IMG/VR virus record: IMGVR_UViG_3300031867_000027
Location: 1-64,000 of that record
Reading direction: 5' to 3' (one strand)
Length of the DNA: 64,000 nucleotides
DNA from: a virus
Lineage: Duplodnaviria; Caudoviricetes
Shown here: piece after piece, positions 3,858-47,863 of the stretch
Numbering within the stretch: the first letter of the stretch is position 1
Layout: the number at the start of each line of letters is the position of its first letter
Program-made: the position numbers and the translations under genes
The notes under the pieces: generated by a model
Databases searched by the model: none
The model's input: only the letters and a program-made list of their open reading frames with translations
What the model was told of the DNA's origin: nothing

Positions 3858-4073
3858 ATGAAACGATATATTAAGGCAACATCAGAGATGAGTGAAGCAC
3901 TCGATACCGCTCTTGATGAGCTCAGTTCAGACTTTGAATATATCATAGATGGTCTGAAGAAACTCAGTAGAACAAGCACAGATAAGGACAAGGAAGCTTT
4001 GTCTATCGCATTGAATCTGAGTTCAGCACTTGCATCTACGATTGATGATATATCAAATTCAATTACAGAATAA
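3858..4073 (+). CDS. Small MKRYI-leader protein (putative virion cargo)
   Basis: Starts MKRYIKATS; GAGGTG RBS; follows class-B promoter. Confidence 0.7.
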   Translation: MKRYIKATSEMSEALDTALDELSSDFEYIIDGLKKLSRTSTDKDKEALSIALNLSSALASTIDDISNSITE

Positions 4074-4088
4074 GGAGTGATTATAACT

Positions 4089-7000
4089 ATGGCTATTAAG
4101 AAGTATAGTGTTAAGGCATCTGCGGAAGCTAAAGCAGTAGTAGCTTCAAAGGGCGAGTACATCAGCGCAGCGCAGTTCTCTGATACGCTCAAGTCCGCTA
4201 AGAAGAAGTTCAATGAGAAGTTCAAGAAGGGACCGTATGCTTGTGCAGAAGTACAGGGTATGGGTTATATCTACTACAATGACGGTAGTAAGATTTATGT
4301 ACCTAATGTCCTCAGATCATATGATGATGCTCTCGCTCAGGTTAAGAAACTTAATACTGGTGCGGCCGGTAAAGTGGCTGCAAGCAAGTCCTTTAAGAAA
4401 ACAGTAAAGGCTTCATCTTCTGCAAAGCGTAGAATTGGTAAGGAGTCTGTAAAGGCTTCTGAGCTTTTGGGTGGAATAGATAAACTCCCAGAGCGCGGCA
4501 AGGTTATCACTAAGACCATAAATGGTGATCCTACAGTTATTGTGGGTATCGATGATAATAAGTATATGTATAAATCGTATCTTAATAAAGCAAGTGCATC
4601 CGGTGATGTGCAGTTTATCAGAAACCTCATTAAGAAAGGTGAAGTTCCTGCTAATGCTGTCAAGAACTTGGGTTATAAGCTCTATACGGCTTCTGATGAT
4701 GTAGAATCAGCCTGCGGTAAGAAGTCTGTAAAGGCCGGAAGATATTCTGATGCTGTTCCTTATGAGAATAGAAAGTATTGGTACTTTACAACTCACGGTA
4801 TCGGTCCCGGTACGCTTCCGAAGGATGTAAATATTCTTGACACTCAGGAAGGTCAGAACCGGAAGGGTACGTGGGGAGACTATCTCTTACTCGATGCGGT
4901 GCTCAATACTGATGAGCTGAGAGAGTATGACCTTATTGAGCTTGCACCGCTTGATGAAGAGCCTACAATTAAGCCGTATAAGAACAAGAATACAATCTCT
5001 GTATTTGATTCTTGCGGTAAGAAGTCTGTAAAATCCTCAAAGTCAGTAAAGAGTTTCGGTGTAAAGGCATCTAAGTCTGTAAATGCTGCAAGAAATTCAA
5101 AGACTGTGGTTGAGCTTGTTCTTCAAGGAAACTATGGCTATGGCTGGGATGACCTTGTATCCTATGACAACACGCCTGAAGGTCGTAAGGAAATGAAGGA
5201 TGACCTTAGAACCTATCAGCAGGAAGAGAGAGGACGTGCAACATTCCGTACCATTGAGCGCAGAGTAGCGAATCCGGATTACAAAGCTCCGGCTGACAGA
5301 TTCAGAGTAACACCATACAAGCTTGGGTTTAAGTATAAAGATGGTGATACCGTGAAGTTCGCAGATATGGAGGAAGCTATCGAGTATGCTGTGTCTCAGG
5401 ATAAAGATGTTGTTCTGAAAGATGTTGTTACCGGATATAAGACTCAGATATCAAATGATACAAGCTTTGGACTGAGTGGACAGGATCGAGATAACTTCAA
5501 TGAGCGTAACATTCGTAATTTCAGACAAGTTGTAGGGGAATCCGAAACGGTTGAATCCTCTGTGTCGGCAAAGAAGCAGTTCGGTGTAAAGGCATCTAAG
5601 TCTGCTAAGAAGAGAGTATCCGCTGCAAAGGGATATTGGGCTGATGACCTCAACGCAGAAAATAACCGTAAGATATTGCAGACACTTAGAGATGCTATAG
5701 CAGATAAATATGATTCTTGTGAGATCGGTGCGATTTGTATAGTTGTGTATGATGTTCAATCAGGTGTTAGAGTAGGCAACTATTCTTTTGAAGTTGAATT
5801 TGTCAATGTAGATACTACGGATGATATATCTTTATATGTAGCATCTTCTCCTGAATCAAGAGGTAAGCTTGTATGCGTGCTAACAGAGTATGGACTCTCT
5901 GAACCGTATGGTAAGGATATTTCAGCACAAGATACATTTACAATCCCAATGTCCGGCTCAAAGAATGCGCTTTCTCAGAAGATTGAGGAAATCGCTGAGG
6001 AACTATCTACCGGAAGCGTAGAGGGTGCGTGTGGCAAAAAGCGTACAGTAAAGGCTTCAGCTGCCGCTAAGAAGCGTAAGGCTATAAAGGCATCCGGAAT
6101 ACAGGATGACATAGTGATGTACTTCAACGGAGATAATGTATATCAGGGAAGTGTCTATGACCTTGCAGATGCGGTAGAAAATCTCTGTTATGATGATGAA
6201 GTAAACGCTAAGTTCCAAGAGTGGTGTAATCAGTTCGGTGATCCTTTTGATTTTGATGGCTCTCCGATTGATACCGCAAGAGTGTTTACCGATATTATCA
6301 TCCAAGAAGCAGAGGAAGCACCGGAGACAGAGAACGGTGGTTCTCAGTTCTATGAAGATGGCAACGGTATTCTTGACTTTGAGATATTCTATGCTAATGA
6401 GGGTATTTATAGTGCTAAGTCTATAAAGTGTTGGGATAATGGCAATGATGTTTGGGAGTATCAGGAATCATATGATTATTATTATGATGAAGAACCACCT
6501 GCACATATCGCTAAGGAACTTGAACGCTTGGCTAAACTTACAGATAAGTATACAGACCGTTGGTTTGAGAAGTTTGAAGAGCTCCATCCGGGTGAACGCT
6601 ATACTTCCGTAGATCCCCATCCTGATGTAGATGAAGCCGTAGGTTATACTCTTGATGATGCAGAGTATAGACCTGATGGGATAAAAGCATCAACAGACAT
6701 CAAAGCAGATACGTGGGAATCATCGGAGGAAAACATAAATGATATGCTGAATGATTCTTATGAGTATGATGGCTTTGATGATAGCGATATGTTGGAGTAT
6801 GTAGATAGTTTCCTTCAAGATGCAAGCAGCGGTGCGTGGCTGAGTACAGATCACGTAGTATACAATGGTCCTGATGATTGGGAAGTATCTGCTGGTCTGA
6901 GTCCGGAAGCTGTTGAATCAGATTTTTGGTTCTTCCTTGATGATGTAGACCACGAATTGTATGAGGAGATGCTTGAAGCGGAAATAGCAAATCCGTTGGA

Positions 7001-46758: not shown

Positions 46759-47359
46759 TGACGTATGGAAACCCGTAGTTGGTTATGAGGGACTATATGA
46801 AGTGTCTAATACAGGGACAGTTCGTGCATTAGAACGTACCGTCATGGGTAGAAATCAAGTAAGCACATTTAATAGAGTTTATCCTGCAAGAATATTGTCA
46901 TTTCATTATTTACCACGGAACTACATTCAGGTATTTCTTGCTAAGAATGGGAAAACAAAGGGATATTTAGTTCATAGATTAGTAGCCGAAACATTCATAC
47001 CTAATCCTGAGAATAAACCAGAAGTCAATCATAAGGATAGAAACCCAGCTAATAATAATGTAGAAAATTTAGAGTGGGTGTCTAAACAAGAAAATATGGA
47101 TCACGCAATAGCTACAGGTTGGAATCCAAAACTAAGTAGATTAGGCGCGAAAAGTACAGAATTGCACAAATTACGGCAGAGTTTGGCTTTAACAAATAGA
47201 AAAGATATATCCATACCGTGTAGGTGTATTGAAACCGGACAGGAATATCCATCTATAAGCGAAGCCGTGAGGCAGACAAAATTAGGTTGGACTTCAATTA
47301 AACGATCTATTGATGAGCATAAATCAATATTCGGTAAATACACTTTTGAGTATGTGTAG
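46727..47359 (+). CDS. NUMOD4-HNH homing endonuclease
   Basis: WKPVVGYEGLYEVSNTG, VHRLVA, VNHKD..NN...NLEW. Confidence 0.9.
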   Translation: MCYLMPSITGNDVWKPVVGYEGLYEVSNTGTVRALERTVMGRNQVSTFNRVYPARILSFHYLPRNYIQVFLAKNGKTKGYLVHRLVAETFIPNPENKPEVNHKDRNPANNNVENLEWVSKQENMDHAIATGWNPKLSRLGAKSTELHKLRQSLALTNRKDISIPCRCIETGQEYPSISEAVRQTKLGWTSIKRSIDEHKSIFGKYTFEYV

Positions 47360-47371
47360 GAGTGATTAATT

Positions 47372-47863
47372 GTGAATATAAAGAAGAATTATATCAAAGC
47401 AGATTCCACAAGTACAGAAATATCAACTAAGATTTCTGAGCAGGGAACAATATTCTATAGAATATCTCTTGATGATGTCATAGATTACTACTCGGATCCC
47501 AAGCGTAACGTATGGGTATGGAAATCATTCATTGAACTTGGTTGGAACTGCATAAACTTTGATAATAGTTTATTCGGAAGTTACGTAGATGGCTCAGACC
47601 TATATCTCTGTGTGACCGACGGTATAGAGATTGATGTTGATGGTGTAGCTGTGAATCCGGAGCTGGCATTTGAAGAATATGATATATCAGATCTCAGTGA
47701 GTATATTCTTCCGGGTAATGATGGCATTATCAAGCGATACATCACTGAGGATGAGATAAAGACCCCTATGTTTGACAAGTGGGCTGGTGAGATCATTGAT
47801 GCCGGATATGACTTCACAGATATGGTGAAGTATGCAAATGAATTCTACGACTTCACAACTTGA
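47372..47863 (+). CDS. Basic-leader acidic protein
   Basis: MNIKKNYIKADS leader variant. Confidence 0.65.
   Translation: MNIKKNYIKADSTSTEISTKISEQGTIFYRISLDDVIDYYSDPKRNVWVWKSFIELGWNCINFDNSLFGSYVDGSDLYLCVTDGIEIDVDGVAVNPELAFEEYDISDLSEYILPGNDGIIKRYITEDEIKTPMFDKWAGEIIDAGYDFTDMVKYANEFYDFTT

Follow-up and report, generated by a model that had tools for sequence, protein, structure and literature searches.

The question raised by this locus is why thirteen unrelated phage proteins should begin with much the same short basic peptide. The stretch of DNA analysed here (the window) covers the first 64 kb of a virus record of 92,751 bp (hereafter G000), for which CheckV gives a completeness of 64%. The initial annotation of the window had proposed that the shared N-termini are a portable tag that loads late-made proteins into the phage head and is then cleaved off. 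On the evidence presented below, the leaders are probably capsid-targeting and processing propeptides of the bacteriophage T4 type, in a clade with a T4-type head module, made up of a Gp23-family capsid protein and a gp21-family (Peptidase S77) protease that is fused to a coiled-coil scaffold. Tagged proteins would be made late, at the same time as the structural proteins, as would two polyproteins in which mostly acidic modules are shuffled, and all would be taken up into the core of the prohead. There the protease would cut behind a small residue, at [V/I]-x-[A/S]|[S/A/T/G/N] (the bar marks the predicted cut), removing basic leaders of 7-35 residues and excising basic spacers. What remains in the head would be the folded modules, to be ejected along with the DNA when the next cell is infected.

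About 13 unrelated proteins with a basic leader had been reported, and all 13 starts are confirmed, each with a Shine-Dalgarno-like site upstream (Table 1). All 13 leaders are basic and end in [VI]-x-[A/S] followed by a small residue. Eight of them start with MKRY, and the remaining five (those of the genes at 4089, 8713, 17350, 18645 and 47372) are longer basic versions with the same [VI]-x-A|small end. The 92.7-kb record holds eight MKRY-coding ATGs, all in the window and on the + strand, and each heads a real open reading frame (ORF) of 71-248 amino acids (aa) behind a ribosome-binding site; no further convincing tags were found elsewhere in the record. As had been stated, the replication genes do not carry the tag, no leader being present on the helicase, primase, polymerase, clamp or ThyX genes. 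The upstream start at 8713 is backed by homologues beginning MKITVGKSKRIMAS and similar, the orthologues of the 3858 protein begin MKRMILAA in L004 and MKKFIYAA in G001 (an IMG/VR relative of 253.5 kb, rated complete), and the G001 orthologue of the 17350 protein begins MRIEKRTRSVDAAS.

In order to measure enrichment, a strict tag was defined as MK[RKL][YF][IV][KRI][ASTCG], with the expectation taken from column shuffles. It is found at 5/116 called N-termini of the record against 0.02 expected, and at 25/371 N-termini of G001 against 0.10 expected, a clear enrichment in both; six-frame translation of the record gave no internal or off-frame copies. A logo of 37 tags from three genomes reads M-K-R-Y-I-K-[S/A/C/T]-[S/A/N]. 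Beyond the tag and the linkers, the bodies are mutually dissimilar (all BLAST E-values at least 0.001). They are also mostly acidic, as described initially, with a median net charge of -8.5 per 100 aa versus -1.9 for other proteins (one-sided Mann-Whitney p = 0.0012).

A conserved N-terminus could also reflect translation initiation or mRNA structure (an A/T-rich start with Lys as codon 2), or be the remnant of a gene duplication, and not be a processing signal. MK starts are indeed common in low-GC phages, and the leaders are A-rich in DNA. I consider this explanation extremely improbable, and both a translation-start effect and paralogy were rejected. The R, I, K and Y codons vary synonymously, showing that selection acts on the peptide, the bodies are unrelated, and the same motif recurs internally in linkers, in the capsid propeptide and in the scaffold. 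The residue before the cut (P1) moreover co-varies with the protease clade, as described below.

The tag behaves as an add-on to otherwise independent proteins. Residues 23-158 of the 11852 protein are homologous to Vibrio phage KVP40.0371 and to phrog_16075, with the leader lying outside the homology, and the KVP40 homologue has no tag. The protein of this T4-like phage, KVP40.0371 (L003:1480-2442), starts MSIIFE|R. This would be compatible with a short leader of the I-x-E type, a hint that a Glu-type phage may target members of this cargo family to its head. The G001 orthologue of the 45157 protein (54% identity) has no leader and its homology starts at residue 14, so that a protein conserved in other respects has gained or lost the tag. 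The orthologue of the 14635 protein in G001 keeps only the second of the two leaders, MVNRNSINRRPIKA.

A search for the same site in capsid and scaffold proteins, and for a prohead protease, had been proposed; both were found in relatives, and not in the record of the window. The G001 capsid protein belongs to the Gp23 family (PF07068, 60.9 bits). Beside its gene is that of a 507-aa protein, whose N-terminal domain matches T4 gp21 (Peptidase S77, PF03420), the rest being coiled coil. Among the homologues of this protein, 32/33 match Peptidase_S77 (best E 1.5e-8), and His66 and Ser121 are invariant in their alignment (A3). Head protease and coiled-coil scaffold are thus fused in one 450-570-aa protein, both in G001 (168897-170420 = L017:8897-10420:-) and in the A3 homologues, and the fusion has a conserved junction, EIAA|S(T/S)D, in relatives. 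This protease-scaffold is the most motif-dense protein of the whole G001 genome, with 9 sites versus 0.87 expected. The capsid protein comes second, with 4/4 sites in its first 91 residues. In 24 capsid homologues sampled out of 120 listed, all 24 keep 3-4 sites in a variable basic propeptide, and in all 24 the last site reads ..[VI][TMN]A|ATNTTNIM, immediately before the conserved body. Neither G000 nor G001 has a match to PF05065 (HK97 capsid) or PF04586 (S78 protease), and when PDB sequences were searched with a profile of the protease-scaffold, nothing beyond coiled-coil noise came back. With Gp23-type capsid proteins and gp21-type proteases in the relatives, the comparison to T4 made in the initial annotation is apt.

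Comparison between protease clades then indicates what the motif is. Representative protease-scaffolds at least 37% identical to that of G001 were grouped as the near clade, and those 26-30% identical as the far, or sister, clade. In the near clade these proteins show an excess of [VI]xA[STAG] sites (z mostly 3-10) but no excess of [LIV]xE, while in the far clade this is reversed. At homologous positions of the alignments the clades are distinguished only by P1: the capsid maturation site is ITA|ATNTTNI in the near clade versus ICE|ATNSANI in the far clade, and the protease/scaffold junction is EIAA|STD versus VTE|S. The protease N-leader likewise reads MLKSTIKA|T versus M.VLIE|T..LKLTE|S. The cargo follows the same pattern: the orthologues of the 44621 protein begin MKRYIRRSIAA|SLKQLD in the near clade, and MKLRIKE|SIKQID or MIKLYIEE|SLKQLD, at the same aligned position, in the far clade. 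E-type leaders and E-type proteases occur on the same contigs (G005, with its E-type protease at 168632-170341, and G008). Across whole proteomes, strict A-type tags number 5, 26 and 0 in G000, G001 and G005, and E-type tags 0, 0 and 5; looser [VIL]xE leaders are found on 39/281 proteins in G005 versus 20/371 in G001 and 7/116 in G000. Since the sister clade has [LIV]-x-Glu at the homologous sites, [V/I]-x-[A/S]| is very probably the prohead-protease cleavage site of the near clade, its P1 having switched from Glu to Ala/Ser.

The cleavage part of the proposed system is therefore strongly supported by comparison, with the site found in capsid propeptide, junction and scaffold, and [LIV]-x-E in the sister clade. 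For the packaging part, I infer by analogy to T4 that the leader would serve as a capsid address, that the proteins would be packaged and ejected and would act later, and that they may be effectors. Protease positions near the catalytic residues also differ consistently between the Ala- and Glu-type clades (G-I-S-V-R-G-A-G-D vs G-V-S-S-R-G-Q-G-D, and F-L-G-H-P vs E-L-D-H-P), and are candidate determinants of P1 specificity.

The co-variation also bears on the possibility that the leader is recognised by the host and cut by a host enzyme, as a Sec or lipoprotein signal, as a Prp-type L27-like extension of the kind seen in staphylococcal phage 80alpha, or as a degron. Basic N-termini do resemble the n-region of Gram-positive signal peptides, and host Prp processes the capsid proteins of some Firmicute phages. 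Nevertheless, I regard a host signal as highly improbable. The site switches with the phage's own protease clade, in two phage types with otherwise similar gene sets; the Prp motif (..F-F|A) is absent; and acidic or polar sequence follows the leaders directly, with no hydrophobic stretch except in the endolysin at 19499. On these grounds, a Sec or lipoprotein signal peptide (no hydrophobic core behind the basic leaders) and a Prp-type extension were rejected. The endolysin-like protein (19499-20449) starts MKILNRSRLKIAAQIILIPSML, a basic N-terminus followed by a hydrophobic stretch, which is of the signal-anchor type and not a tag. Just upstream of it, two small membrane proteins (17709-18161 and 18168-18620) are encoded between tagged genes.

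Two of the tagged ORFs, of 1513 and 564 aa, are predicted polyproteins, with 15 internal motif sites versus 1.67 expected and 4 versus 0.7 expected, respectively. The sites are often paired around a basic spacer of 9-13 residues, for example ..INS|ACGKKSVKA|S.. or ..VNA|STKRSRSAKAVKA|S... In the 1513-aa protein the spacers have a net charge of +3 to +5, and large acidic modules of -18 to -50 lie mostly in the C-terminal half; its modules are shared piecemeal with P0023, P0035, P0040 and others. The 564-aa protein has 40 homologues, which are similar module by module, in differing orders and combinations, and the ends of the homology blocks coincide with linkers or predicted cuts. In an AlphaFold model of this protein, residues 16-123, 331-414 and 433-564 form confident folds. 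The predicted local distance difference test score (pLDDT) is <50 at the leader (1-15) and at linkers 124-138, 300-330 and 415-432, and the second module (~residues 130-300) is poorly predicted. The predicted template modelling score of 0.33 fits an arrangement of beads on a string. The last module (module 4) folds alone with a pLDDT of 91.7 and has no PDB match; it resembles small uncharacterised proteins of Bacillus and Brevibacillus phages, and is also found as a stand-alone gene, tagged or untagged, on other viral contigs. Searches of both polyproteins gave no Pfam or PHROG domain, and no embedded peptidase by Pfam. In the Glu-type relative G005, an acidic protein of 410 aa (180794-182026) has ..SVKLKIKE|T.. 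as an internal site and ends in a methyltransferase domain homologous to that of the 18645 protein. One and the same cargo domain can thus be a tagged protein by itself in one phage and belong to a polyprotein in another.

An alternative is that the prohead protease does cut at the motif, while the leader has no role as an address. The bodies would then hold the targeting information, or the proteins would just be parts of the scaffold core, degraded and discarded, and nothing functional would be injected. In favour of this, sites are as dense in the polyproteins as in the scaffold. Most T4 scaffold fragments do leave the head (PMC8442874), and no effector domain was found except one methyltransferase: Pfam, PHROGs, ESM Atlas and Foldseek suggested no cargo function beyond this domain of the 18645 protein (Pfam Methyltransf_23, 29.9 bits vs a cut-off of 27) and a weak acetyltransferase-like PHROG match of the 10423 protein, which has no Pfam match. 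I nonetheless consider this alternative unlikely. The modules fold confidently as independent domains of ~85-135 residues, too large to leave a closed shell in the way that small peptides do, and recur as stand-alone genes in other phages. The first six residues of the tag (MKRYIK) are conserved far beyond the need of a three-residue cleavage motif, and in T4 the targeting part of the leader is its N-terminal part.

Capsid-targeting propeptides thus remain the favoured reading, and comparison with known systems illustrates how far they follow T4. All gp21-type proteases characterised so far (T4, phiKZ, 201phi2-1 and SPN3US) cut after Glu. The T4 internal proteins carry a capsid targeting sequence of ~10 residues, MKTYQEFIAE, which gp21 cuts at L/I-x-E and which is enough by itself to bring foreign proteins into the head (PMC9026906, PMC8442874). 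As in T4 IPI-III, a leader starting M-K-x-Y is found on unrelated late proteins and ends in the P3-x-P1 motif of the protease. Also as in T4, the motif recurs in the propeptide of the capsid protein, at the N-terminus of the protease and in the scaffold, and the relatives have a Gp23-type capsid and a gp21-family protease. There are however several differences. P1 is Ala/Ser here and not Glu, and the near-clade substrates are not enriched for [LIV]xE. The minimal leader is basic and has 7 residues, whereas that of T4 is acidic and has 10, and the cargo is mostly acidic where that of T4 is basic. The number of tagged proteins is much higher (13 in 64 kb here, with 25-26 strict tags in the 253-kb relative), some of the cargo is in multi-module polyproteins, and the protease is fused to the scaffold in relatives, while T4 gp21 and gp22 are separate. 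The system varies a known mechanism, the capsid targeting of T4, and is not of a new kind.

In giant phages, many head and ejection proteins are cleaved. The phiKZ gp175, 201phi2-1 and SPN3US gp245 proteases all cut after Glu, at S/A-x-E or A-x-E; like the protease proposed here, they are related to gp21 and act on numerous internal head proteins, frequently at more than one site in a propeptide and with Ser preferred at P1' (PMC9026906, PMC10052503). Unlike the leaders described here, most of their propeptides are long (111-254 aa), and they have no conserved portable 7-residue tag.

Herpesvirus proteases prefer (V/L/I)-x-A|S, a resemblance in specificity that is probably convergent. In herpesvirus assemblin of the UL26 type, the protease is N-terminal to the scaffold, with junction and maturation sites (PMC4498786), and the protease fold is related to that of phage prohead proteases (PMC9026906). 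The protease-scaffold fusion and junction site of the relatives are alike in their working, but not in family, the sequence family here being S77. Herpesviruses belong to another branch of the virus realm, and cargo tagging is not known in them. Lastly, polyvalent proteins, known from phages and conjugative elements (Iyer et al. 2017, PMC5512222), are likewise long and made of several modules. Their genes lie next to virion genes, and the proteins are predicted to be packaged and to travel with the DNA, proteolysis then freeing the modules. Their modules are recognisable enzyme domains, released by embedded peptidase domains; here, by contrast, Pfam detects neither an embedded peptidase nor a known domain, and it would be the head protease that frees the modules, acting in trans on short linkers.

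Several observations weigh against capsid-targeting propeptides. No capsid or head-protease gene was found on the 92.7-kb record by PHROGs, Pfam or direct family searches, and the link of the leaders to the protease therefore rests on relatives. The S77 match of the G001 protease (E 9e-7, 25.6 bits, 23.1 in another run) is below the curated cut-off of 27. The cargo is acidic, unlike the basic internal proteins of T4, which is odd for co-packaging beside DNA. Two of the tagged genes, 44621 and 45157, are located behind a tail-fibre-like gene, and in G001 one of them has an untagged orthologue, so that the tag may be dispensable, or these may not be head proteins. Finally, the motif is short, and individual site calls are uncertain, especially for second sites within leaders. 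The tail-fibre-like gene (42436-44607) also precedes 45157-45555 in conserved fashion, the G001 counterpart of the latter (71568-71954) likewise following such a gene.

A bolder proposal, which I regard as possible but doubtful, is that a whole clade of gp21-family proteases has reset P1 from Glu to Ala/Ser, with dozens of substrate sites per genome following, in capsid, scaffold, protease, leaders and polyprotein linkers. Everything that an abundant group of uncultured large phages packages and injects could then be listed from sequence by its 7-residue tag, M-K-R-Y-I-K-S/A. Much of this proteome would consist of shuffled acidic modules delivered as polyproteins, perhaps DNA mimics or anti-defence proteins. 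A clade that cuts after Ala or Ser, and in which all substrates have changed along with the protease, would offer a natural experiment on the co-evolution of a protease and its substrate set, and would point to the residues that set P1 specificity. The tag also provides, by sequence only, a listing of candidate packaged or injected proteins in hundreds of uncultured phage genomes, which is where first-minute anti-defence and host-takeover functions are expected, and could be a compact handle for loading foreign proteins into capsids, like the T4 sequence. In the papers searched, the tag strings MKRYI, MKKYI, MKRYV and MKLYI were not found in any phage context.

The tagged units had been placed downstream of a promoter motif, and this late-class motif, AACCTTATATA, is indeed found upstream of every tagged operon except 16118. 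It also precedes the sheath operon (genome 85339). The exact motif is not regular in G001, where a relaxed form, AACCTT(N0-2)WATA, has 24 copies on the coding strand vs 3 on the other; these precede the head, sheath and fibre operons and tagged genes, a pattern that matches the window.

Table 1. Tagged open reading frames, predicted polyprotein linkers and late-class promoter motifs in the window. Bars mark predicted cuts.
Feature	Coordinates	Strand	Leader or remark
Late-class promoter motif AACCTTATATA	3810..3820	+	
Other AACCTTATATA copies	11313, 14577, 16678, 17280, 26149, 41637, 46107	+	
Other AACCTTATATA copy	48685	-	
71-aa acidic protein	3858..4073	+	MKRYIKA|T
1513-aa predicted cargo polyprotein	4089..8630	+	MAIKKYSVKA|S
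Linkers of 1513-aa protein	~4374-4457, 4707-4736, 5007-5087, 5565-5624, 6024-6092, 6675-6707, 7230-7262, 8115-8147	+	basic, with paired sites
564-aa predicted cargo polyprotein	8713..10407	+	MNIKYGKSKRIMA|S
Linkers of 564-aa protein	9064-9099, 9610-9696, 9964-10005	+	
248-aa acidic protein	10423..11169	+	double leader, MKRYIKS|NKGIVPTAVSKKRRAVKA|S
194-aa protein	11852..12436	+	MKRYIRS|A
108-aa acidic protein	14635..14961	+	compound leader, MKRYKVFS..SIRA|N..KKRRPIKA|A
181-aa protein	16118..16663	+	MKRYIRA|N; promoter motif not directly upstream
171-aa acidic protein	16750..17265	+	MKRYIKRGVTA|S
114-aa very acidic protein	17350..17694	+	MKIRRNAPIMA|A
236-aa SAM-methyltransferase-domain protein	18645..19355	+	MKIRIGRSKSIRA|S
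174-aa protein	44621..45145	+	MKRYIRRSIAA|S
132-aa protein	45157..45555	+	MKRYIIS|A
163-aa acidic protein	47372..47863	+	GTG start; MNIKKNYIKA|D

The phage is a member of a large, uncultured clade of myophages related to T4, whose genomes measure ~130-250 kb. An identical 564-aa protein is found on a 131-kb contig elsewhere, and the record of the window is therefore a fragment. No useful relative was found among GenBank phages by megablast of the region or tblastn of the sheath, and a scan of IMG/VR with the sheath as single-protein query gave no match. In G001, the portal is 62-64% identical and homologues of 49/116 record proteins are present, in the same order. The 92.7-kb record encodes the gene set of a contractile-tailed phage, with strong Shine-Dalgarno sites. 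The replication module includes helicases, DnaB, primase, an intron-split polymerase, clamp and clamp loader, phage sigma-like genes are present, and the late region encodes a terminase with an HNH insert, the portal, a gp15-like sheath stabiliser and the sheath.

Further features of the record lie outside the tagged genes. The terminase large subunit (1069 aa, genome 76920-80129 = L001:13920-17129) contains the HNH endonuclease-like insert, and its G001 orthologue aligns only from residue 214. Between terminase and portal is a conserved 518-aa protein (genome 80163-81719 = L002:163-1719) with a BRCT domain at its end, which is unusual in a head-gene block. Four stretches of the window, inside genes or between them, have no credible ORFs (~26900-28900, 33000-33800, 37450-38450 and 60800-62850). 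They correspond to a tRNA-like region and to probable group I introns that harbour genes for homing endonucleases. One GIY-YIG-like ORF (61256-61990), a probable intron homing endonuclease, splits the DNA polymerase gene.

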